Positions 12,964 through 64,000 of a stretch of DNA of 64,000 nt are shown piece after piece (position 1 is the first letter of the stretch; the number at the start of each line of letters is the position of its first letter). A program made the position numbers and the translations under genes. Source of the stretch: Podarcis vaucheri (Eukaryota); the NCBI GenBank assembly GCA_965113315.1, contig OZ220366.1, one strand, 5' to 3'. Under the pieces are notes generated by a model that was given only the letters and a program-made list of their open reading frames with translations, was not told where the DNA came from and made no database searches.

Positions 12964-13348
12964 TGTACAATTCCTATAACTTTATAAACTGCTACAACCT
13001 GTCTGCCTTGTTTCAAATCCATAAATTAAAAACAAAAGGGGGGGGGGGAGAAAGCACATGAAGCAGAAAGAGTAACTGGGACAGAGCATCCCACTTCCAC
13101 CCTCCTACTTCAGATACATGTACTTTTCAAGGGAGAAAAAAAAAGAACAGCCCTTGCCACCTCATGAGATGGACAGTGAATGGGACTAGCTCTGAGGCTT
13201 CATGGGTACCAGGGTAGGACCTTCCATAACCATCATATTGATCACACTTGGGATAAGGGAGTATTGGCAACAGGAAAATGTATTTTAGAAATGTGGAGAT
13301 GGTACCATACATTCAGAGCTAAACTGTGTACTATATGTTATTCAATAC

Positions 13349-13611
13349 TGTTAGGTTGTGGGTGAACATATCAGACGACACAGCGATTCTTCAAACAGCT
13401 ATTGTTTATTCTCAGGCCAGAACAGAACTGACTGAAGGGTTCAGCCAACCTGCTTATATAGAGCTCTACTACAAAGCAGCAGTAACAAGATTCTGTAACT
13501 ATCCAATCACTGAACGTTACTTTCAATTCCTTATTTGCATATGTGGACCTGAGTGAAAACTATCTACAGTATCCCCCTGCTGGCCCAGGGTGAGAACTTC
13601 AGTACACAACA
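13349..13611 (-). mobile_element. Solo LTR (263 bp) of an LTR retrotransposon
   Basis: TGTT...AACA termini, 5-bp TSD AATAC; reverse complement of 56885-57147. Confidence 0.85.
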
Positions 13612-27825: not shown

Positions 27826-30800
27826 CCCCTTCATGGATCACTGCCTTGCCGTGGCGAAGGGGCTTGAAGAACTCAGAGAAGCTATGAACTATGCCGAGCA
27901 GGGCACCCAAGATGAACAGGTCATAGTGGAGAGTTTTGACCAAACGTGATCCACCTGGAGTAGGAACCGGCAAGCCACTCCAGTATCCCTGCCAAGAAAA
28001 CTCCATGGACAAAGACAACAGGCATATAAAAGTTATGACACTGGAAGATGAGCCCCTCAGGTCGGAAGGTGTCCAACATGCTACTGGGGAAGAGCGGAGG
28101 ACAAGTACAAGTAGATCCAGAGCTGATGAAGCGGCTGGGCCAAAGCCGAAAGGACGCTCAGTTGTGGATATGCATGGAAGCGAAAGGAAAGTCCAATGCT
28201 GTAAAGAAAAATATTGCCTAGGAACCTGGAATGTAAGAACCATGAACCTGGGTAAGTTGGATGTGATCAAAAATGAGATGGCAAGAATAAATATTGACAT
28301 CCTGGGCATCAGTGAGCTAAAATGGACGGGAATGGGCGAATTCAGGTCGGATGACTATCATATCTACTACTGTGGGCAAGAAACCCGTAAAAGAAATGGA
28401 GTGGCCCTCATAGTCAACAAAAGAGTGGCGAAAGCTGTACTGGGATGCAGTCTCAAAAATGATAGAATGATCTCGATACGAATCCAAGGCAGACCTTTTA
28501 ACATCACAGTAATCCAAGTTTATGCACCAACTACTGGTGCTGAAGAAACTGAAATTGATCAATTCTATGAAGACTTACAAGACCTTATAGAAGTGACACC
28601 AAAGAAGGATGTTCTACTCATTATAGGGGATTGGAATGCTAAAGTGGGGAATCAAGAGATAAAAGGAACAACTGGAAAGTTTGGCCTTGGAGATCAAAAC
28701 GAAGCAGGGCAAAGGCTAATAGAGTTCTGTCAAGAGAACAAGCTGGTCATCACAAACACGCTTTTCCAACAACACAAGAGACGACTCTACACATGGACAT
28801 CCCCAGATGGGCAACATCGAAATCAGATTGATTATATTCTCTGCAGCCAAAGATGGAGAAGCTCTATACAGTCAGCAAAAACAAGACCTGGAGCTGACTG
28901 TGGCTCAGATCATCAGCTTCTTATAGCAAAATTCAAGCTTAAACTGAAGAAAGTAGGTAAAACCACCGGACAGGTAAGATACAATCTAAACCAAATCCCT
29001 TATGAATACACAGTGGAAGTGAGGAACAGGTTTAAGGATTTAGATTTGCTGGACAGAGTGCCTGAAGAACTATGGGTGGATGCTCGCAACATTATACAGG
29101 AGGCAGCAACTAAAACCATCCCAATGAAAAAGAAATGCAATAAAGCAAAGTGGCTGTCCAACGAGGCCTTACAAATAGCGGGGGAGAGAAGGCAAGCAAA
29201 ATGCGAGGGAGATAGTGAAAGATACAGGAAATTGAATGCAGATTTCCAAAGAATAGCAAGGAGAGACAAGAAGGCCTTCTTAAACGAGCAATGCAAAGAA
29301 ATAGAGGAAAGCAACAGAATGGGAAGAACCAGAGATCTGTTCAAGAAAATCGGGAGTATGAAAGGAACATTTCGTACAAAGATTACCATAATAAAGGACA
29401 AAAGTGGTAAAGACCTAACTGAAGCAGAAGACATCAAGAAGAGGTGGCAAGAATACACAGAGGAATTATACCAGAAAGATATGGATGTCTCGTACACCCC
29501 AGGTAGTGTGGTTGCTGACCTTGAGCCAGACATCCTGGAGAGTGAAGTCAAATGGGCCTTAGAAAGCACTGCAAATAACAAGGCCAGTGGAAGTGATGGT
29601 ATTCCAGCTGAACTGTTTAAAATTTTAAAAGATGATGCTGTTAAGGTGCTACACTCAATATGCGAGCAAGTTTGGAAAACTCAGCAGTGGCCAGAGGATT
29701 GGAGAAGATCAGTCTACATCCCAATCCCAAAGAAAGGCAGTGCCAAAGAATGCTCCAACTACCGCACAATTTCACTCATTTCACATGCTAGCAAGGTTAT
29801 GCTTAAAATTCTACAAGGAAGGCTCAAGCAGTATGTGGACCGAGAACTCCCAGAAGTGCAAGCTGGATTTAGAAGAGGCAGAGGAACCAGAGACCAAATT
29901 GCAAACATGCGCTGGATTATGGAGAAAGCTAGAGAGTTCCAGAAAGACATGTACTTCTGCTTCATTGACTATGCAAAAGCCTTTGACTGTGTTGACCACA
30001 GCAAACTATGGCAAGTTCTTAAAGAAATGGGAGTGCCTGATCACCTCATCTGTCTCCTGAGAAATCTCTATGTGGGACAAGAAGCTACAGTTAGAACTGG
30101 ATATGGAACAACTGATTGGTTCCAAATTGGGAAAGGAGTACGGCAAGGCTGTATATTGTCTCCCTGCTTATTTAACTTATATGCAGAATTCATCATGCGA
30201 AAGGCTGGGCTGGATGAATCCCAAGCCGGAATTAAGATTGCCGGAAGAAATATCAACAACCTCAGATATGCAGATGACACAACCTTGATGGCAGAAAGTG
30301 AAGAGGAGTTAAAGAACCTTTTAATGAGGGTGAAAGAGGAGAGCGCAAAATATGGTCTGAAGCTCAACATCAAAAAAACGAAGATCATGGCCACTGGGCC
30401 CATCACCTCCTGGCAAATAGAAGGGGAAGAAATGGAGGCAGTGAGAGATTTTACTTTCTTGGGCTCCATGATCACTGCAGATGGTGACAGCAGTCACGAA
30501 ATTAAAAGACGCCTGCTCCTTGGGAGAAAGGCGATGGCAAACTTAGACAACATCTTAACAAGCAGAGACATCACCTTGCCAACAAAGGTCCGTATAGTAA
30601 AAGCCATGGTTTTCCCAGTAGTGATGTATGGAAGTGAGAGCTGGACCATAAAGAAGGCTGATCGCCGAAGAATTGATGCTTTTGAATTATGGTGCTGGAG
30701 GAGACTCTTGAGAGTCCCATGGACTGCAAGAAGATCAAACCTCTCCATTCTGAAGGAAATCAGCCCTGAGCGCTCACTGGAAGGACAGATCGTGAAACTG

Positions 30801-31034
30801 AGGCTCCAGTACTTTGGCCACCTCATGAGAAGAGAAGACTCACTGGAAAAGACCCTGATGTTGGGAAAGATGGAGGGCACAAGGAGAAGGGGACGACAGA
30901 GAATGAGATGGTTGGATGGTGTTCTTGAAGCTACCAGCATGAGTTTGATCAAACTGCGGGAGGCAGTGGAGGACAGAAGTGCCTGGCGTGCTCTGGTCCA
31001 TGGGGTCACGAAGAGTCGGACACGACTAAACGAC

Positions 31035-31075
<41 letters not shown>
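27826..31075 (+). mobile_element. Full-length Bov-B (RTE clade) LINE
   Basis: ~3.25 kb, Bov-B-type 5' UTR (ATGGATCACTGCCTTG...), single long ORF, (CAA)n tail 31039-31075, 11-bp TSD AACTTTTCTTT (27815-27825, 31076-31086). Confidence 0.98.
28005..31037 (+). CDS. Bov-B ORF: apurinic-like endonuclease + reverse transcriptase (1010 aa from first ATG; frame open from 27936)
   Basis: APE motifs GTWNVRT, GISE, QVYAPT, GDWNAK, QIDYIL, SDH; RT motifs NYRTISL, QAGFR, FIDYAKAFD, GVRQGCILSP, YADD, FLGS; no stops or frameshifts. Confidence 0.97.
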
Positions 31076-43910: not shown

Positions 43911-45001
43911 GTGGTAATGAAATTATATATTGCACAGCTCTCCTTTAGTAGAATTATTGCAATGACACACAACCTTTCGGTTTTCGTGCCACCAGTAATA
44001 CATTTGGGAACATTAGTAACTATAGCTTAATATTATTAGTTAAGTTAAACTTTATTTGTTAAGGCTGCAGTCCAATATGCACCTACTAAGCACTAAGACC
44101 CATTGAATCAAGTAGGATGTCCTTCTGAGTAAGCATACATAGGATTGTTCTGAAATTCTTTGAAATCATTGGGCACAATCTAGCCAAAGTAAACAAAACA
44201 TTATAAGACCTTCAGTGAGAGAGGGTTTTTTTTAAAGCACATGCTTAATGTTCTCCAGTTGAAATTAATGGGGCATTACAAAGTGCTTAACTTTGGCTGG
44301 ATGGGTTCCATTATTAGTCATAACTGGAATATGTGCATCTGGATGAGGGCAGTAATTATTTAATTTTATTTTGTTAGCCAAAAGCTTCCATCAGTGAGAA
44401 CACAGCACTGAAAGACCGACATCTGTTCTCTAAGGCACAAATAAGGTTATGTGTTCAGGAAATGTAGTTATGGTCAAGGCTAGGGAAATATATTCAGCTT
44501 GGGTTTTGTTTTTTTACTCTTGAGTTTTGCTGCCTATTCTTTGTCTAACAAAAGACCCTAAAGTTTCTTCTAGAACCAAGGACCATGCGTTCACTTCTAC
44601 CCTAACCTTCAGTTGTACTACTTCAGAACACAGAATTTATTTTGCATTTATGTTCAAAGTGCTCCACAGTGATAAATTCAAGACTCCTCGCAATAGTCTT
44701 ATAAAGGTAGGCTGGTGTTATCATCCCCATTATGAGACACAGAGGCTGAGAGGATTGTACACAATTTAAGGGCCTCTGGCCGACTGGCCAGCTATCTCTT
44801 CCTTTGGCTTCCTTTGATTAACTCTGTTGGAACCAAAAGAAAACAGTGCTGAGATGAGGAGGAATAATGCCTAATTAGTGTTTAATTCTGACATTTAAAA
44901 CCAGTTTTTGTTTCAACTTCTGCCTTTTCATGAATACACAGCACTTTAGAAATAGGTGGCAGTGGGCTTTTTCCTTCTTTTTTTCACCATCAGTCACTAA
45001 A

Positions 45002-45803
45002 GCGTGTTCTCACTAGCAGAGAGCACGTGTTGCGGTTGGGGAGCAGGCCACCATCATGACTAGGCAAATTTGGGGAACCCAAGCTGGTAAAGGGTTAATT
45101 GGGTTGCTGGGGATTTTTGTATGTTGCTAATTTGGAGGAGGGGTCAGAGTCTATAAATTGAGGAGTTAGACTAGGGGACGTCCTCTTGGCCGTTTTGCAT
45201 CGGATCACCCGCCCCCCTCCCTTTTTATAGGGTGGTTCTTGGGTTCATTTGACCTTGCTATGCCTGTCATGGGGTTGTTCGCCTTTGAGCGGGGGCCTGG
45301 TAGGAATTTTGCCATTTGGCTGATTGGCTGTTGCCATTTGGTTTTTGCCTACTGCGTAGCAAATCGTCACAACTTGTAAGGTTGGCGGTTAGGCATTGGT
45401 TAAATTGGTGCTTGGAGGGGTAAGGTGCCTATCCCTCCAAATGATGCGAATGGGAATTCCGTTAAAGGAATCCAGGGGCTTGCCATTCTTTCGTCCTTGT
45501 CCGTGGTGCCGGGCTTGGGCCGTGCAAGCCCCACCGGAACATGAGGGTGAGAGGTGTTGGACTGAATTCCCAGCCTCATTTCTCCCCAATACTTGTTTCC
45601 CACGCTGGCTTCCGGTGGTGCCCGGAAGTTTCAGCTCTGTCCTCGGGGGCAAGGACAGAAAGTCATAACCAATGCCTAAGCAACCACTCACATTTTCTGT
45701 ATTTGAATAAAGTTGTGGCCAAAATTTATGCCAAAAACCTTAAACAAAAATTAACGTGTGCTGTGTGAATTTTTGGGGGGTGGCACTGCGGAACTCAACA
45801 CGC
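45002..45803 (+). mobile_element. ~800-bp non-coding repeat; probable solo terminal repeat or non-autonomous derivative of a tyrosine-recombinase (DIRS/Ngaro-like) retroelement
   Basis: Homologous end-to-end to 53140-54313; termini GCGTGTT/AACACGC flanked by A-runs rather than a TSD; TATAAA ~45152, AATAAA ~45706. The family assignment is an inference. Confidence 0.6.
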
Positions 45804-47473
45804 AACCAGCGATACAACAAGCAGAAAGATTTTCATTTAGCTGCTGTTAACCACAACGCCATCCTACGTAACAAAAATAAACCCAATGCTAAGTAATGGG
45901 ATAATAAAAAACAACAATTGCTGAAGTTAACAGATAAATATCATTAGTATACAAAGGAATAAAGCTGTACACAGGCATCAAGAGTACCATTAAGCTGTTT
46001 CACTTCCACACCAGAAGAAGACATTTCCATTAGAGAGCTGATGAGTGCTTTTTCAAGAGCTACATTGCTTTTTGCAAAATGTCATTGAACACTAATATCT
46101 TTGAGCAGATTTATCTCACAGTTTTAAATTTGAAATATAGCAGTACAATTACTAGATTTTTTTTAAAAAACCAAACATTTAGACTATATTAAGTTTAACC
46201 CCACCCCATCCAACCCTTTCTCAGAAAACTTTAGTGCTTCCCAGCCTCAAGATGCCTAAACCACAAAGGACACATTTAATGAAACTTGCAAGTAAATAAG
46301 AAAAAAATTGCCCTTCTTGTAGCCTGACAATTGCCACCGGCAATAAGGTCACGACATGTAACCTTTGAAGAACTTGAAAAAACATTAATATAATATAATG
46401 ATTCCATCTTCTTAATAGAAATAATTAAGCTGAACTTGGTCTTTTCTTGTTAACTTTGTAGACATGGCTTGTAGGACAACTATTCAGTTTGGAGCACTGA
46501 CACCCATTCCCACATTGTAATTTACTAGATAAAATATTATGATTAAGAGTTTTGCATACACTTTGCATTTAGGTGGCAGACTCCAGGCTCTGCCACTGTT
46601 GTTTTGACACCATTTGTGTAATTCCTAGTTTGATGTGAGAATATTTTGGAGCTCACCACAATATAATTGTGATCCCTCTCTACTGATGAATATCAGTGAA
46701 AATGCAGCGAAAATTAAAGGAAAGGGCCTCAGCACGGTTTGGGTGGATAAGGTCCTAAGTAATAACCAGGAAAGCCCTACCTCTACCCAACAGCCAATAA
46801 ACAGCTCAAAACAAACAGTTAATTTAAAGGGACTGTATACCTGGTTGGTAGGGCACATGTATTTAAGTTCCACATTCAATCTGCTTTAGGGTGCACCAGG
46901 GCAAGAAAGGAGGCCAGCTTAGAAGGCTGCTGCCAGTAGATGCCCTTTATTTATTTTCCATTTATTCACTGCCCTTTTTTTTGGCAAGGCACTCAATGCA
47001 GCTCCCATCCCTTGCAGTAATGGTTTGCAATTTAATAGACTCAATACAAAAAGGGGAAAGTGATGGAGAGGGGAAAGGAAATCCAAGGATATTGGCTACT
47101 GCATTAGGGGTGGAGCCAAATGGTGGTTGTTCACCAGATTCCTCATATTCCTTACCAGATTCCTTATATTCTATACTTAAAAGGGTATAATGCCATGAAG
47201 AGGAACTACACACACTCTCAACTGTATGTTAGGCTTTGCCACTCAAACCTAAAGAACATTAAAATCAGGAAAGGGAGTGTCAGTGTTCCACAAAGCCCAC
47301 CTTGCTTTCTGTTCCAGGTCCATTTCTGCAAGAGCCCATTTGTAAAAGGGCGTGTAATATTACAAACAAAAATGTTGCCTGTTTCTTCTGCTTAGAGTTT
47401 TGCCCTGTTAGCTTAGGGCACAGAGGCTCATTTAATTTCATTGTACACAGCTTGTACAATGACAATAAAGGTA

Positions 47474-53139: not shown

Positions 53140-54313
53140 GCGTGTTCTCATTAAAAGAGAGCATGTGTTGTGGTGGGGGCCAGCCAAGCCACCCCTCTGT
53201 TGCCAGGTGGCTTGGGATGGTTGGTCTTTGGCAGGGATTGGTAGTTTGAGTTGCTGGGGTAATTTTGATGTTGCTAATTTGGGGGAGGGAACAGAGGTTT
53301 TTTAAGCAGTGCACGAGGCTTTTCGCTTTCTCTTTCACTGCGTGCACCGGATCACCCGCCCACCCTCCCTTATTTTAGGTCTTGTGCGTTGACCTTGCTA
53401 TGCCTGTCATGGGGTCGTCTGCTGTTGGGGCAGGGGCCTGGTAGGAATTTTGTCCATCTGGCTGATTGGCTGGTGCCATTTGGTTTTTGCCTACTGCGTA
53501 GCAAATCGTCACAACTTGTAAGGTTGCGGTTAAAGGTAAAGGTAAAGGTACCCCTGCCCGAACGGGCCAGTCTTGACAGACTCTGGGGTTTGTGCGCCCA
53601 TCTCACTCAAGAGGCCGGGGGCCAGCGCTGTCCGGAGACACTTCCGGGTCACGTGGCCAGCGTGACAAAGCTGCATCTGGCGAGCCAGCGCAGCACACGG
53701 AACGCCGTTTACCTTCCCGCTGGTAAGCGGTACCTATTTATCTACTTGCACCCGGGGGTGCTTTCGAACTGCTAGGTTGGCAGGCGCTGGGACCGAGCAG
53801 CGGGAGCGCACCCCGCCGCGGGGATTCGAACCGCCGACCTTTCGATCGGCAAGCCCTAGGCGCTGAGGCTTTTACCCACAGCGCCACCCGCGTCCCTTTA
53901 AGGTTGCGGTTAGGCATTGGTTAAAAATTGGTTGGAGGAGGGGTAAGGATGGGCCTGCCCCTCCAATGCTGCTGCTGCAAGGGAATTCCGTTAAAGGAAT
54001 TCATGCTTTCGTCCCAGTCCCTGGAATTGGGTTTGGGCCGCATAAGCCCCTGGGAGCATGTGGGGAGAGGGCCTGTGGCGCAGCTCCAGTTTCTCCCCAA
54101 TATTGTTTCCCCTTACTGACTTTCGCTGGAATCCGGAAGTCAGTTCTGTCCACAGGCGGGGAGACAGATAATCGTAACCAATGCCTAAGCAACCACTCAC
54201 ATCCATGTATGTTAATAAAGTTGTGGCCAAAATTATGCCAAAAACCTTAAACAAAAGTTCTGTGTGATGTGTGTGCTATTTGGGGGGGGGGTGTCTTGGG
54301 GACCTCGACACGC
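53140..54313 (+). mobile_element. Second copy of the ~800-bp DIRS/Ngaro-like non-coding repeat, interrupted by a Sauria SINE
   Basis: AAA-GCGTGTTCTC start, GACACGC-AAA end, shared blocks with 45002-45803, AATAAAGTTGTGGCC at ~54214. Confidence 0.6.
53533..53896 (-). mobile_element. Young full-length Sauria SINE
   Basis: CpG-rich, GGGACGCGGGTGGCGCTGTGG head, 14-bp TSD TAAGGTTGCGGTTA (53519-53532, 53899-53912). Confidence 0.95.
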
Positions 54314-54702: not shown

Positions 54703-54948
54703 TTATAAATAGATCCCAGAGCGTAGGGGGAGAACGATGGTTCAGAACAGTCACACTCTCAAACACTTTTTAAAAAAGAAAAAAAAAGAAGCCAAAGAAA
54801 TGGCTCGAGATAGAAGGTGCTCCAGTAGTGCTGAAGTGGAAAATTTGTTACAGGCATGATAGATTAGATATCAAGGAAAAGGCTGCGGTATTAGACTACG
54901 TACTTGCAAGCTATTCTGAAGGGAGTAGGGGTGGTGATGGGAAGGAAT
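54703..54948 (+). repeat. ~245-bp local direct duplication, copy 1
   Basis: Near-identical to 55825-56069 (a few substitutions and A-run length changes). Confidence 0.95.
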
Positions 54949-55824: not shown

Positions 55825-56069
55825 TTATAAATAGATCCCAGAGCGTAGGGGGAGAACGATGGTTCAGAACAGTCACACTCTCAAACACTTTAAAAAAAAA
55901 AAGAAGAAGAAGCCAAAGAAATGGCTCGAGATAGAAGGTGCTCCAGTAGTGCTGAAGTGGAAAATTTGTTACAGGCATGATAGATTAGATATCAAGGAAA
56001 AGGCTGCGGTATTAGACTATGTACTTGCAAGCTATTCTGAATGGAGTAGGGGTAGTGATGGGAAGGAAT
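55825..56069 (+). repeat. ~245-bp local direct duplication, copy 2
   Basis: Near-identical to 54703-54948. Confidence 0.95.
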
Positions 56070-56884: not shown

Positions 56885-57147
56885 TGTTATTATTGAAGTT
56901 CTCACCCTGGGCCAGCAGGGGGAGACTGTAGATAGTTTTCACTCAGGTCCGCATATGCAAATAAGGAATTGAAAGTGACGTTCAGTGATTGGATAGTTAC
57001 AGAAAGTTGTTACTGTTGCTTTGTAGTTGAGCTCTATATAAGCAGGTTGGCTGGACCCTTCAGTTCAGTTCTGTTCTGGCCTGTGAATAAACAAGAGCTG
57101 TCTGAAGAATCGCTGCGTCGTCTGATATGTTCACCCACAACTTAACA
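56885..57147 (+). mobile_element. Solo LTR (263 bp) with intact-looking promoter and polyA signal
   Basis: TGTTA...TAACA termini, 5-bp TSD GAT(G/C)G, TATATAA 57035-57041, AATAAA 57086-57091; paralogue at 13349-13611. Confidence 0.85.
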
Positions 57148-60100
57148 GATCGGGTCAACCAACATGGCACCCATGGGCACTACTGTGTTCACCAGTACCC
57201 CCTAAGATGTCTTAGAAAGGTCTCATTAAATATCACCTCCAATATTCACAACCTTCTGCATGCAAAACAGATGTTCTTCCCTGTCACAGGGCTCTGTGGG
57301 GCCAATGGGAATCCATCTGAATGTGGGCACTGTGCCCATGGTTGCAAATGCCCCAAGTCTAGAAGGGAAGATGATAAACTAGGCACACAAGCAATGATAT
57401 CCCACAAACCTACAGAATCATTTTTGTGGTAGAGCAACCCTATCTGAGCTGATTCGGCATTTGGAGTGGGGGAGAGACTGAATGAAAAGAAGAGCCAGGC
57501 TGTGGGCTGTGTGTTTCCCTTTGTTTGGAATCTCTATAAGGGGGTTGAAAGGGGAGTGATTCACCATGGATAATAATTCGAAGGCCAGGATGGTTGTGGG
57601 GGGTGGGAGGAGGAAGGAGAAGAGCCGAAGCAGGCATAAAAGCTGTGACTCGATAAATGTTCCCAGCAGTGGATGAGGCAGGAGAGGCCAACAAAATATT
57701 CAGTGAAGACGCAGGACGGTGGGTGGTAATAAAACCGGACATTTACCACCTACAGTAATAAATTTTGCTTTGGTAATGAAGGTATTTCCCTCTCTAGCCA
57801 CAGGCAACTCTACTCTGCTATAAATGAAGGCAAATAAGGAAATGCATTCCAAGAGGTCAATTTGAGGGCACTCCACCTGCAACTCCCCACCACACAGGAA
57901 GGTCTTCTTCTCCAGAAAATGCTACACCTTGTACTTACCCCCTAGCCAGGTAGGGCTTTAACTGAGCTACAGCCAGTATTGTTTTTTGGAATGAAAACAA
58001 GCAAGCTGATCCTAAGCACTTGTTTGGCTTGGGAACAAACAGTCTGTAAAACTCAGTGAAAAATTACTTTCCAGATAGATGTGATTAGAGGCCAGCATGG
58101 TGGAAAGTAAATGTCCTTGCCCAGTAGTTGACACAAGCTACGAGCTGCTCTATAAGTGGGGAAATTGGAATTTAGTTGACCCAGCAAACTAAAAAAAAAA
58201 AGGAGGGGAGTCTTAAGCAGGATTGTATGTGCTTCACCTGTTTAACAAAGAGCAAAAAGAAAGCAAGAGATAATTTTAAAAACCAAATGTTACATGCAGA
58301 CTGGCGTTTGCATCCTTTGCTAAAGCATATCCTGTTTCTATTCTTTCACAGGCTAGCTGAGCACTGCATCATACTGTACCTTTGGCACCTGATTCTGTGT
58401 GCCAGTTGGCACGTTTTCTTAGAACGTTTAGCTCCAATTAATGGCTTGGTACACTTCAAAAACAGGATGCAGCAAAACAAGCAAAGTGGCTCTGCATTTT
58501 TGTTTTTTGGGGAGAAATCAAATGTAATTGAATTTATAGTACAGTATTTCAGCATATGAATTGGCCTCAATCCAGCTCTTATGAGGATCAGCAACTAGGA
58601 ACGCTGTCCCCAATTGCACCAAAAAACACATTCATCCAATTCTACGGAGCCTGGATGAACATTGCGCTAAAGTACAGGTGGATGACCTGTGGTCCACAGC
58701 ATCCTATTATGTGACCACAAATTCATCCTGAAGCTGCTGCATTCTTCCATCCCAACAGGGTTCCCTCCTTCGGGTTTGCTTTCTCTGTATCTTTCCTTGC
58801 TTTTTTAAAAAAAGTTTCCCCCTCTTTCTTTGTAGTCCTACAACAATTGTTTGCTAAAAATAAATTGATTTTTTTAATTATTATATTTTAAGTTTCCTGG
58901 TTGTATGGCTTGGGAAAAAGAAGTCCATGTGATCTGAGTGTTTGTTCATCATGCCCTGTTGAGATTCTGGCTGACAGCTACTTTTCCCTCTGCAAGGGGG
59001 ATATTAGGATGGTTTGATGGGTCCCCAAAAACATATTGGATTAAGGTGCTAATTCATCACACTGGTTCATTAATGAAGCCAAGTCAGTTAAAATCTCAAC
59101 TGGAGCCTGTGGTTTGCCCCTCAGATGTAGTTACCAGAACTATTCCTTGAACGTCCCATACTGACTTGACTTTGCAGGCAATTTTTTTCTCCATTTTTGG
59201 CCAGGGCGAGCAATTTATGTCACGTTTAGCATCATCGGGCACCCGCTGAAGGACCACATCATACCTAGATAAGCTACTAGACCTGTTCCTCCTCTTCGCC
59301 ATTGCAATCTGCTTGTTCACCCACCTCTTATTCTTGCCCAGACAATTGAGGTGAGGAGGAGGAACAGTAGATGCCACTGCCTTCTTGCTCATTGGCTCTC
59401 TGCTTGGCAAAAGAAGAGGAACAGTAGGTGAGAAGGTAAGCCAGTGGTAGCAACCTTCAGGTGCTGCTGGAGTCCCAGATCTCATCATCTGACAATTGGC
59501 TGGGACTGATGTGAGCTGAAGTCCAGCAACACACTGGCTGGTCCTGAGGCTGATGGTCTGAGGGAATAGGGTCCAGAAAGGGTGCCTTGCCCAGGGGTTA
59601 TCCAAAACATGAAATCCATGGGTTTGTTGCTGCTGTTGTTTCTATAGGTAAGGCTTGAAAGGCTCATGTCAAACTCAAACAATTCCCCGTTTGCCACGTG
59701 CCTCTCTTCCTTACCGTGCTAAAATTGATAGTTCAATGAAGCCTAGAGATATTAGTAATTTAAACAGGTGAGTCAATTAAAAGCCACTCAGGCTCTCTAG
59801 AAGCCTTACATAAGCACACAAGGATAAAAAATCCTCTTAGCAGGCAAGAGAGAAGAGTTTAAATGTACTCATTGTCAAGTGAACAAGGCCCCTACCATTT
59901 GACAGATGGGTGTAGGTTCAGTTGCCTTACACTTAATGGGAGCAAATGACTCATAGCAGCTTGTTCATCCATTTGGGGCTACGCCTGCACAAGGGTTCGT
60001 GAGCTCTCAAGTTGCATGCTCTACCCCTGTGTAGCCCTGATATTCAGCAATCGGCGTGGGTGTTCCGGTTTTGTATATTCTAGGGCAAGAGGGATGGAAG

Positions 60101-61747
60101 AATAGAGCGATGGATCAGCTTAAGAGATTCAGTTGCCACACTGCTGTACTTCTCATTTGAATGGCATCTTTTACTGATGAACCAATTCAGTTAAACTGGT
60201 CTCATCCTTGAGATCTCCAGAACAGGGACATGTGCATGGTTGTTGTTTTTTTAATCCACTGGGAAGTTTCATAATGAATAATGCATATTATAACTGAGTA
60301 ACGATTCCTGTGTATATTGATTTGGGCAATCGCAGACAAGTGACACTCCTTTTGATGAGGAGACACACACCAGCCATAGTCCAGTTTCTCGTTATTTCCC
60401 ATATGTAAGAATAAGAGAGAGAAATGTTCTCTATTCCGTTATCCAAAAAGACCTGCGGATATAAGACCAGTGTTAAGGCTCTCTCGGGTTGGCTGTAATT
60501 TCACAAAGCTGGAGAAATGGGAGGTAAGGCTAATGCCTTTACAGGCGCACCCTGTGACAACCCTCTATGTGCAATGTCACAAAATGTGGTTGAGTATAAC
60601 CTGATGTCCATGCAACCCACACTTTTTCTTGGTCTTTAAGGACCAAGTCCAGAAGAGGAGGATGCTCTGCGTTGTCCTGGTTCTGTAATGCCTGGGGAAG
60701 GGGGAAATTAAAGGAGTGCTTGTATGTGGACTTGTGATATGTTTGTGGTGGTGCTGGGGTTCCAGAGGGGGGGTGGGGGGAGTTAGTGCAAGTACTGATT
60801 TGGAGTTTTAAGATGTGCATGTGTCATGTTATTTTCCTAGCTGCCCTAGACATTAACGGAGCAGGAAAACTTTTAAGAACTTTTGAAGTGTTGTGCAGAA
60901 CTTCATGTTTTATAAACTATGGAATTTGGAGGCTTATGATTGTGAAACCGTTTTCTAAATCTCCTTTAACTAAAGGGGCACTCCTGTGTCCCAGTAATCT
61001 CTTTACTGAAAGGGACTCGCCCAGTAGGGCTTCACCACAAGGCAAGCTTCCTGGCAGAGGTGTCAGTGCCACTTCCCAAAAGGGAGAGGGATGAGGCAGT
61101 GAGGAGATCAGCATAATGTGGACATACCAGAAGAAGCACTGACTTGGCTCCGCTGGTGCTTCCATGCCAACCTCATCACCCCTTAGTAAGGTAAGCAGCA
61201 GCAACAAAGCTAACACTATGATGCAACGTTCGAAGCTCCCGTTGTTCTAGGTGTGTTTTGCAACAGGGAATTTCATTAGCACGAGCAGTTTCTGAGCTCT
61301 GCACCTAAGATTTCAGATTAAAACTGAGCAGTGGAAGGAAAGGAGCACCTTTTTCTGCCTCGCCATTTCCAGCCACTCTCTGAAGACTGGAGAAGAAACC
61401 CTCTTAAGAATATTAGTGGGGTGGGCAGGGGAAGCATGGCTTTGTTTTTTGCAGTCTTAAGGTGGGGACTAGACCAAGTGGACATAAGATTTTAGCCGCA
61501 GTTCATTCATTTTCAGCTTTGCATTCTTGTTATAAAAGAGCGTGCCTAGATGTTCCATTGTTGCGCCCATAACCTAGGTTTAAGGTGCCATTTAGCTCCT
61601 AGCTTTCATATCTCAGTTTCTAACACTGCTATGATGCCACCCTACTGGGCAATTTTCTGCTTTCTGTCCTCTGCCTGTAGCATTCTTGTTAATGCTCTTT
61701 CTCTGTGATAATCCTGCAAAACTGTGCAGGTTACGGATCCCATCGAG

Positions 61748-61872
61748 CAGGCATGGCCAAACTTGGCCCTCCAGCTGTTTTTGGGACTACAATTCCCATC
61801 ATCCCTGACCAGCTAGGGATGATGGGAGTTGTAGTCCCAAAACAGCTGGAGGGCCAAGTTTGGCCATGCCTG
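61748..61872. mobile_element. Near-perfect palindromic hAT-type MITE
   Basis: ~60-bp arms CAGGCATGGCCAAACTTGGCCCTCCAGCTG... fold back around a short loop; 8-bp TSD CCATCGAG/CCGTAGAG. Confidence 0.88.
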
Positions 61873-64000
61873 CCGTAGAGGGAATCCACATGCATACCTT
61901 GAGGTGAGTTGCATGCAGAAAAGCCCATCAGCACATGCAGGTTTGGGTTGGGACCTGTGAGCATCATCTCTCTCCATGCTATTTGTGTAAAGCTAGCACT
62001 GTGTCTGTTTCACCTTCCTCCTTATACAATGAAGGATATGTCTTATATCTTCCTCATTATACAAAATGACATACCAAAAGCAGTTTTCCCCTCCTCCCAC
62101 ACCTTGATGGTGTTTGTGATCAGATGAAGGGCTCTTACTCCATATGTTCATTGGCAATCAATTATGCCACAGCTAATGTTACAGCAAGAGAAATGCAGTT
62201 CATTAAAAATTACTGCTTGGAGTGGGTGCCATGCAATTTTTGAGGAACTGGAGTGGAATTAGGGAAGGTGATTTTCAGGAGAGCAAGGGATGCTATCCTC
62301 CCTCAGCAAATGTCAGCTGGGGCTGCTGTGGTACCATCGTTGTTGTTTTTTAATGGAGTTTTACAATCAAGACTATTTCATTAGATGCCACTTAAGTTTT
62401 AATTAATGAAGCATCCATTTTGTTTTATTGTGTAGTTTTGCACAACTCTGCTAACTAACTTTTCAAGGGCCTCACATTAATTTTCAGTTGCTTCCTGTGC
62501 ATCCAGTAGTTTGTCCACGCCATCAGGCGGAAGCCAGCTTCTTCCAGGACGCAAAATTTTATTCAGCAATGAAAAAGAACACTAACCATTGTGTTTGAAA
62601 GTAGCCAATGGTGGATTCTTGTTTGCTCATTCCAGGAGGCATTGCACCAAAATCACATCAAAGTGACATCTGACTTGTTTATCGCTTATGTGGTCAGGTG
62701 GTGGTGCTATTCAGGGAATCCTCAAGGAAGGTATATGACTCTCAGGGGCATATAAGGAATCCTCTGTGTGTAGGCTTCAAACTCAAAACTCTAAAAAAAA
62801 TCTTAATCCTTCACAAGAGAGGAGAGCTCAGCTATGATCACATCTTCCCAAGATTTGAGATTACTATCCCAAATGCCTTTTAAATTAGGCCTGTATAGCT
62901 TGTGAGTCATTGAGTCATATGTTGCTCACCAGCCATATATTGTGCACTTTCAGGTGCGTGATGCCATCATCAAAATCGAAAACTTTATCGAGTCCCTAAT
63001 GGCCTAGGGAGCTGCATTTAGCTTAGGGGGTCACATGTTGTGTGGGCATGGTGAAAGTGGATAGTTCCCCCCTGGGATGAATGACTGAATGATGCACGTA
63101 GTGTTCAAGGCATAACAGCTGGGCACATCTCCAATATTTCCTTTTAAAAAAACAACAACCATGTGAGTGACTCAAGTTGACTTCTGCCACAAGCTATGTT
63201 GATGATGTTGACATAACTGACTGCTTATCTGTCTCTTTGGTTGTCCATGTAAGAGAAAAACTGGAGAATAAGTATTTCTCAGGCCCTGCTTAGAGGTATA
63301 ATGTTTGCCCAAAGTAAGGAAAATAATTCATTGTGAAAAGTTAAGTTGCTGTGATTTATGCAAGTGTGTGAGATGATTACATTGCATCTATTCTGGTGGA
63401 GTCGAAGTCAATATGCCTGTGAATGTAAAAGTAGCCTTTTTCCAGAGCCGCCACTCATTACTATTACTACTAGTATTCAGCTTAATGCCAAAAAAGTGTG
63501 TAATGTCTTTGTAATAAATTGTTGAACAACTTCCATTATTTGTGCAGAAGCAAGTACTCAGAGCAGTATTGACGTAACATTCCAAAATCTAAACCACCTG
63601 TGACTACCTCAATAAATACCCCTCCCCAATTCATCTTTCAGAATTTCTTACCCTTCTCAGGTTGTGTTCACATACCTTAATTAATTAAATCTGCTTTTGC
63701 GTTCCTGGCATCTATAATTAGCTGTACTTCCTTATAAATGTGGATAACCCCAAATACACCACCCTCAGTTTCCAGAAGGAAAAAATGTGGTACATGAGTT
63801 ATAAATAACAAAAGGGGTTAAGAAAGCAAAATAAGTAACTTTGTTTATCAGCTTAGAAGGGTTAAAGGTCCACTAACCAAGGACAGAATCTCAAAGGCTT
63901 GGTAAGTCTCTCCCAGACCCCCTCCTCCTCACAGAAAAAAATACCTATATAAGGCTCGTGTGTGTCAAAGTGTGTTACTGCCATCATTTGGTGAAATAAA

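Follow-up and report, generated by a model that had tools for sequence, protein, structure and literature searches.

A solo split-repeat unit of a Ngaro-type retrotransposon in Podarcis vaucheri: junction, target and probable origin from full-length copies

The layout of vertebrate Ngaro elements has been set out by Gazolla et al. (10.1101/2021.08.05.455354), and their distinguishing features, including the absence of a methyltransferase, in PMC4157794 and PMC3266345 (the methyltransferase in PMC4157794). In the available portion of the former account, the Xenopus elements DIRS-53_XT and DIRS-54_XT resemble the long elements reported here in running A1-ORFs-B1-A2-B2, with four overlapping frames and no methyltransferase. 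They differ in that our elements carry a 174-bp spacer, X, between A2 and B2, and in that the repeats of DIRS-53_XT measure 236 (A) and 152 bp (B) versus 207 and 421 bp here; that portion contains no solos, junction sequence or target (10.1101/2021.08.05.455354). Isolated AB units scattered in the genome, as here, are described for the Ngaros of Cafeteria burkhardae, where Hackl et al. derive them from recombination between the 5' and 3' repeats and liken them to solo LTRs (PMC8547959). That host, however, is a protist, each strain of which carries 10-25 full copies, and the available text gives neither a target site nor an empty allele (PMC8547959). SIRE of Trypanosoma cruzi corresponds to the A2-B2 region of VIPER and, like our unit, consists of an A repeat, a unit-only spacer and a B repeat; its authors, in the part of their report available, leave undecided whether it is mobile or a remnant (Ribeiro et al., PMC6681497). 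SIRE and VIPER differ from our elements in belonging to the VIPER superfamily, in gene order and in a spacer of 30 bp (PMC6681497). DIRS1-like elements, too, have a junction motif of 3 bp, which is AAA in some families of vertebrates, lack a target duplication and keep an internal junction copy that templates the ends, but their repeats are inverted and they possess an ICR and a methyltransferase, according to the available parts of two accounts (Piednoel et al., PMC3266345; Malicki et al., PMC7192593). The latter, as far as available, records no experimental study of DIRS-order recombinase specificity as of its writing (PMC7192593). A solo repeat of a Ngaro element is thus a known class, and the literature we searched yielded no account of a squamate Ngaro junction or target; the primary description, Goodwin and Poulter 2004, lies outside that search and may cover junction and solos.

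We analyzed a 64-kb stretch of the Podarcis vaucheri genome, hereafter the window. It contains, at 45002-45803, an 802-bp element that consists of one A-X-B unit (207+174+421 bp) standing alone, with the following parts.

44999..45001, plus strand: left junction trinucleotide AAA; from the empty-site joint and the flank tallies, AA matches the empty target AAC and the third A is element-borne
45002..45208, plus strand: A repeat, 207 bp, starting with junction arm GCGTG(TT); the sole part recurring 5' in long copies (A1)
45152..45157, plus strand: TATAAA in A (unit position 151), putative promoter judged from its sequence
45209..45382, plus strand: X spacer, 174 bp, found only between A2 and B2
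45383..45803, plus strand: B repeat, 421 bp, ending with junction arm (AA)CACGC; long copies have it a second time, as B1, behind the ORFs
45706..45711, plus strand: AATAAA in B, putative poly(A) signal, likewise judged from its sequence
45804..45805, plus strand: right junction AA, constant after all right ends (146/146 and 92/92)

The earlier note on this DNA had reported two such copies with matching termini and signals, and these hold up on inspection. The first copy begins GCGTGTT after AAA at 45002 and ends AACACGC before AA at 45803; the second begins GCGTGTT after AAA at 53140 and ends GACACGC before AAA at 54313. Both have a TATA-like box, that of the first being the TATAAA at 45152, and both have AATAAAGTTGTGGCC near the right end (45706 and 54214, 98-100 bases from it). 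The note's remark that there is no credible ORF also stands: the longest open stretch in any frame of 45002-45803 is at most 116 codons, and the solo unit encodes nothing.

The second copy is older and carries an insertion of its own.

53140..54313, plus strand: a further solo A-X-B unit, older and from a different subfamily; its best matches in a set of 215 units are at 79-83%
53533..53898, minus strand: Sauria-SINE-like insertion, 366 bp, with its (ACCTTT)n tail on the minus strand; family name from the tail motif only

This copy measures 1174 bp because the SINE sits inside it; with the SINE set aside, the two window copies align in three pieces at 74-82% identity. The insertion is flanked by a 14-bp target duplication (53519-53532 and 53899-53912), and the 64-kb window holds five other Sauria-SINE-like copies, the (ACCTTT)n tail being the motif given for Sauria SINEs in the available part of PMC13295347, which indicates a squamate host.

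An empty version of the site defines the ends of the window insertion. Contigs from all four DNA runs, which carry four organism labels, join 44998 directly to 45804 across an empty site CACT-AAC-CAGC, skipping 805 bases with two letters of ambiguity. The net gain at this one locus is therefore the unit plus AAA, with nothing duplicated beyond the AA common to target and junction, and the conventional 4-6 bp duplication that the note had found missing is indeed absent (a 2-base overlap in 4/4 runs). Because one of the empty runs bears the species label that best matches the stretch, with few flank differences, the insertion is probably recent and polymorphic. Across genome copies, too, the ends are constant and we found no 4-6 bp duplication.

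Flanks tallied over many insertions place the exchange more closely. AA always follows the right end, in the counts given above, and the third base is free. On the left, the last base is A in 47/47, 56/56 and 25/25 cases (sets that partly overlap), the third-last in 132/134 and the middle one in 117/134. In the remaining 17/134 the middle base is T or G while the right end is still AA, and the flanking AA is therefore not a duplication. The simplest reading is a single exchange point, AA^A, with a target-derived AA, AT or AG on the left and an element-derived AA on the right. Beyond these bases the target shows an outer preference, the same in solos and full copies, for G, A and C at -6 to -4 and T at +4. 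These tallies leave out 4 of 60 upstream stretches in which the A1 start was not located, 9 rows in 7 loci whose right end was not readable, and 16 loci duplicated between two search sets; a youngest-copy set comprised 120 loci minus 24 already counted and minus 4 internal tandem units.

The target need not be the AAA site of the earlier idea. At the window locus it reads AAC, and across insertions near invariance is confined to the first A; the target is AAA in 27/57 full copies and 7/58 solos. With its crossover after the second base, this family thereby differs from the DIRS1 model, which needs an identical target trinucleotide in the available descriptions (PMC3266345, PMC7192593). The recombinase-like site that the note had obtained by joining the ends is real and equals the internal B1-AAA-A2 junction that every full-length parent contains, where the spacer is AAA in 57/57. 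Its arms are less regular than proposed: among 215 units the perfect 7-bp inverted repeat occurs in only 112, with 5 bp (CACGC/GCGTG) in 84, 2 bp in 2 and another start in 17. The common junction core is CACGC-AAA-GCGTG.

These parents emerged when the unit was searched against its own genome, which gave 41 whole-unit matches at 94-100% identity among 40 scored candidates. Thirty loci were fetched: in 14 the unit stands alone, and in 16 unit bases 382-802 lie directly upstream with AAA between. We examined 10 kb upstream of 20 copies with an upstream B, and all 20 have the layout A1-ORFs-B1-AAA-A2-X-B2, with unit bases 1-206/207 found again as A1 5' of the internal region and a total length of 6.8-7.9 kb. 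A1 and A2 differ at 0-2 positions per 200 bases in these copies, and B1 and B2 by 0-6 substitutions in 54 copies. A 25-base motif across the X-B boundary has 748 exact matches in the genome, far above chance; the internal-B1 boundary has 167 and the youngest-type junction 21, with none for the controls. These counts are lower bounds and not ratios, because the motifs are subfamily-bound.

Coding parents, two of which were scanned with Pfam, have four overlapping frames that resemble Gag, reverse transcriptase (RT)/RNase H, tyrosine recombinase (YR) and SGNH hydrolase. RVT_1 scored above its cut-off in both (E 1e-12 to 3e-12). Phage_integrase matched at E 3e-6 to 6e-6, its 26.6 and 27.6 bits lying on either side of the 27.1-bit cut-off, together with a SAM-like domain; Lipase_GDSL_2 (E 2e-4 and 2e-3) fell under its curated cut-off in a frame where G-H-S and D-G-V-H motifs can be read. 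The Gag-like frame has a weak zf-CCCH match in the two copies. By eye we read the catalytic motifs YLDD in the RT and R..H-x-x-R..W..Y in the recombinase, and acidic motifs of RNase H type for which Pfam gave no RNase H match. The RT frame, which stops about 30 residues past the last RNase H motif, shares an overlap with the YR frame. Neither scanned copy matched a methyltransferase, integrase or transposase.

On these structural features and Pfam domains, the window element is almost certainly the solo repeat of a Ngaro-type retrotransposon. The long copies have split direct repeats, A1-[ORFs]-B1-A2-B2 (20/20), an RT/RNase H frame with RVT_1 in both scanned copies, a recombinase frame after it on the same strand with no DDE integrase, and, as in vertebrate members, an SGNH hydrolase frame after YR, although its Pfam score is below the curated cut-off. 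They have no methyltransferase domain, which sets Ngaro apart from PAT and DIRS1-like elements, and the one insertion with a known empty site lacks an ordinary target-site duplication. We rejected a PAT-like assignment, since split repeats are present and the methyltransferase is absent, and a DIRS1-like one, since the repeats are direct and the methyltransferase is again absent. The note's suggestion of a solo A+B repeat of a YR retroelement is thus supported by parents that share its termini, split direct repeats and four kinds of frame, and none of the outcomes that the note had named as refuting it was observed.

Many long copies are themselves non-autonomous or aberrant. Gag-like sequence is present in 3/20 long copies and in 14/60 further ones, and absent from 63/80 (L031-L037, L039, L041-L048, L050 and 46 of L171-L230). 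Most of the Gag-less copies have one common internal region. In L032 it combines a minisatellite (22-bp repeat, about 22 copies) with sequence corresponding at 92% to the 3' part of the parent, and its RNase H/YR remnants are broken and no more than 37-50% similar to those of the coding parent. The common internal start is paired with the termini of several subfamilies, as if it had repeatedly captured the ends of active elements. Some non-autonomous copies retain an open frame of 329 codons, the length of a YR, and many in L171-L230 have an additional partial B piece about 0.9-1.7 kb upstream of B1. L145 has lost nearly all of B1, so that its internal region almost abuts A2, and its junction reads TAAG rather than AAA; it was excluded from later tallies. 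L182, in which A1 was not located, has a 1142-codon open frame upstream that probably belongs to a further element inserted there.

Our data favor, as the more probable origin of the solos, the collapse of full-length copies whose coding middle was lost by recombination between the A repeats. The sample of solos and full copies comprised all 53 exact X-B matches on one contig, two of them already counted before, and 40 sites on two others. In a tree of 87 units the solos are interspersed with full copies, apart from one older, diverged solo-only clade, and no young solo-only clade appears. With nearest-neighbor identity as no more than a proxy for age, the solo share in this junction-picked sample rises from 12/34 at 99% identity or more to 28/34 below 97% (p=0.0002). 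The complementary form, A1-internal-B without A2-X-B2, makes up 17/40 internal-B1 sites and has a normal A1 left end in 16/17, and tails of two or three units occur in L047, L069, L155, L270 and L322. Solos among full copies, loss of A2-X-B2 and multi-unit tails are all as expected from recombination between direct repeats. Solos also account for 8 of the 29 insertions, in one subfamily, whose units are identical to the query, one of them a tandem solo pair (L250). Since solos are common among these youngest events and the window copy is absent from the run with the matching label, collapse must be fast for a 207-bp repeat. The note's reading as solo repeats stands, and the data favor collapse of full copies over its added guess of mobilization as small circles into AAA sites. 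As a separate observation, L285-L287 (C17:116.80-116.82 Mb) form a local segmental duplication, in which a single solo and its right flank are present in triplicate within 15 kb.

Alternatively, the A-X-B unit may move by itself as a non-autonomous element, through a short A-to-B RNA or an 805-base circle from the internal junction to the right end that a parent's recombinase integrates; we regard this as unlikely. The unit does have both junction arms as well as sequences resembling a TATA box and a poly(A) signal, its net insertion is exactly the unit plus AAA, solos are frequent among the youngest events, and the copies without A2-X-B2 could be donors. On the other side, no young solo-only clade is found, the solo share grows with divergence, and all of these products are also expected from direct-repeat recombination. 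For independent amplification of the SIRE kind, the lack of such a clade and the frequency of solos among the youngest events point in opposite directions.

The base after the right-hand AA bears on this alternative and on collapse alike. It is A in 7/37 solos versus 27/54 full copies of a first set (p=0.004) and in 5/27 versus 7/11 of an independent set (p=0.017), and the bias held by subfamily (p=0.003-0.011). Such a difference counts against plain recombination, because that predicts an equal +3 base in solos and full copies. In a third set, with a pre-stated test on the youngest copies of four other subfamilies, the difference is gone (12/25 versus 35/67, p=0.82), although the pooled counts still differ (23/84 solos versus 68/131 full copies, p=0.0004). 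Within 95-99% clusters the test for A gives p=0.11-0.31, and a post hoc C/G coding p=0.002-0.009. We rejected regional base composition as the cause, since flank GC is 0.42 versus 0.40 and +3 is the strongest of 148 positions, and we dropped the bias as proof of minicircle insertion in view of the third set and of its weakening in tight clusters. The +3 bias may reflect older subfamilies that preferred a different target, the disappearance of solos with a perfect AAA, or some connection of collapse with integration.

A further explanation ascribes the solos to the element's own recombinase, or to repair of an integration intermediate: at or soon after insertion the left target end would be joined to the internal junction rather than to the outer one, and solos whose two ends both carry a perfect AAA may later be excised. 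In its favor, the recombination site is present intact at the internal junction, many solos do not differ from full copies, permuted copies are absent, and a perfect AAA target occurs in 16/49 young versus 4/35 diverged solos (p=0.036, post hoc). Yet left AAA is not enriched in solos (47/58 versus 55/60 full copies), which homology-dependent exchange would favor; older subfamilies with another target taste fit the age trend equally, and the products are otherwise the same as those of host recombination. We hold this explanation, too, to be unlikely. The parent structure refutes two further readings, which can safely be set aside: a solo LTR of the usual kind (TGTT...AACA), and a MITE bearing 7-bp terminal inverted repeats with AA duplicated. 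Three features speak for them: TGTT and AACA stand three bases in from the ends, in formal terms the two arms are terminal inverted repeats, and AA is present on both sides of the window copy. But there are no TG..CA ends, no 4-6 bp duplication and no integrase-bearing parent that an LTR retrotransposon or ERV would offer; the parents combine a tyrosine recombinase and split repeats with no integrase or transposase match, A is the one part of the unit repeated 5' in long copies, and left AT or AG accompanies right AA in the 17 cases above.

Returning to collapse of full-length copies, we propose the following life cycle, its first steps modeled on DIRS-order biology. An RNA would run from A1 into B2, and the internal B1-AAA-A2 stretch would act as the template that rebuilds the missing ends in reverse transcription. 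The recombinase would then join the rebuilt CACGC-AAA-GCGTG to a target GAC-AA^N, and an exchange between the second and third A would leave AA at every right end and one A at the left. From the copy statistics, A1 x A2 recombination would subsequently yield solos, B1 x B2 recombination the copies without A2-X-B2, and unequal exchange the tails of two or three units.

One step of the textbook scheme does not fit. If the whole element were circular, with two AAA junctions of equal standing, use of the inner one should give permuted copies (A-X-B-A-internal-B), and there are none among the 76 located left ends of 80 long copies. The intermediate must therefore mark the outer junction, and the textbook account of the circle is not complete. 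One way to mark it may be single-stranded linear cDNA, which the available part of PMC7192593 reports for DIRS-1. More speculatively, and with less than even confidence by a wide measure, an active vertebrate Ngaro recombinase might exchange at a fixed point, AA^A, requiring homology at no base but the first, tell a new junction from the identical internal one, and act on resident copies, making solos and excising perfect-AAA solos as reinserting 805-base circles. If true, this would replace the circle model with two equal junctions and settle, for split-repeat retrotransposons, the question of mobility or remnant raised by SIRE.

This young and large family offers a base-exact junction, a target profile from more than 100 insertions and a verified empty site, and it places two constraints on any replication model, namely the fixed crossover and the absence of permuted copies. 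Polymorphic solos make self-movement of A-B units testable with population reads.

Four RNA runs under the label of a related species gave 338 reads on one parent, mostly partial and mostly on the repeats, with no pile-up of read starts or ends seen among them. In run X23, three reads pass from the Gag-like frame straight into B (L038:4483 to 8531), skipping 4047 bases with two letters between; this joint may come from a deleted copy in that species.

The window holds further repeats of its own. A 246-bp direct repeat, 96.7% identical (54703-54948 and 55825-56069), lies around about 880 bp of older repeat fragments and may represent either one long duplication or a pair of stubs left by a young retroelement. 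Two pairs in inverted orientation, 617-1018 with 30646-31049 and 13348-13604 with 56891-57148, are 94% identical and belong to other young repeat families. At 61747-61873 stands a 127-bp near-perfect palindrome, 92% identical to its own reverse complement.
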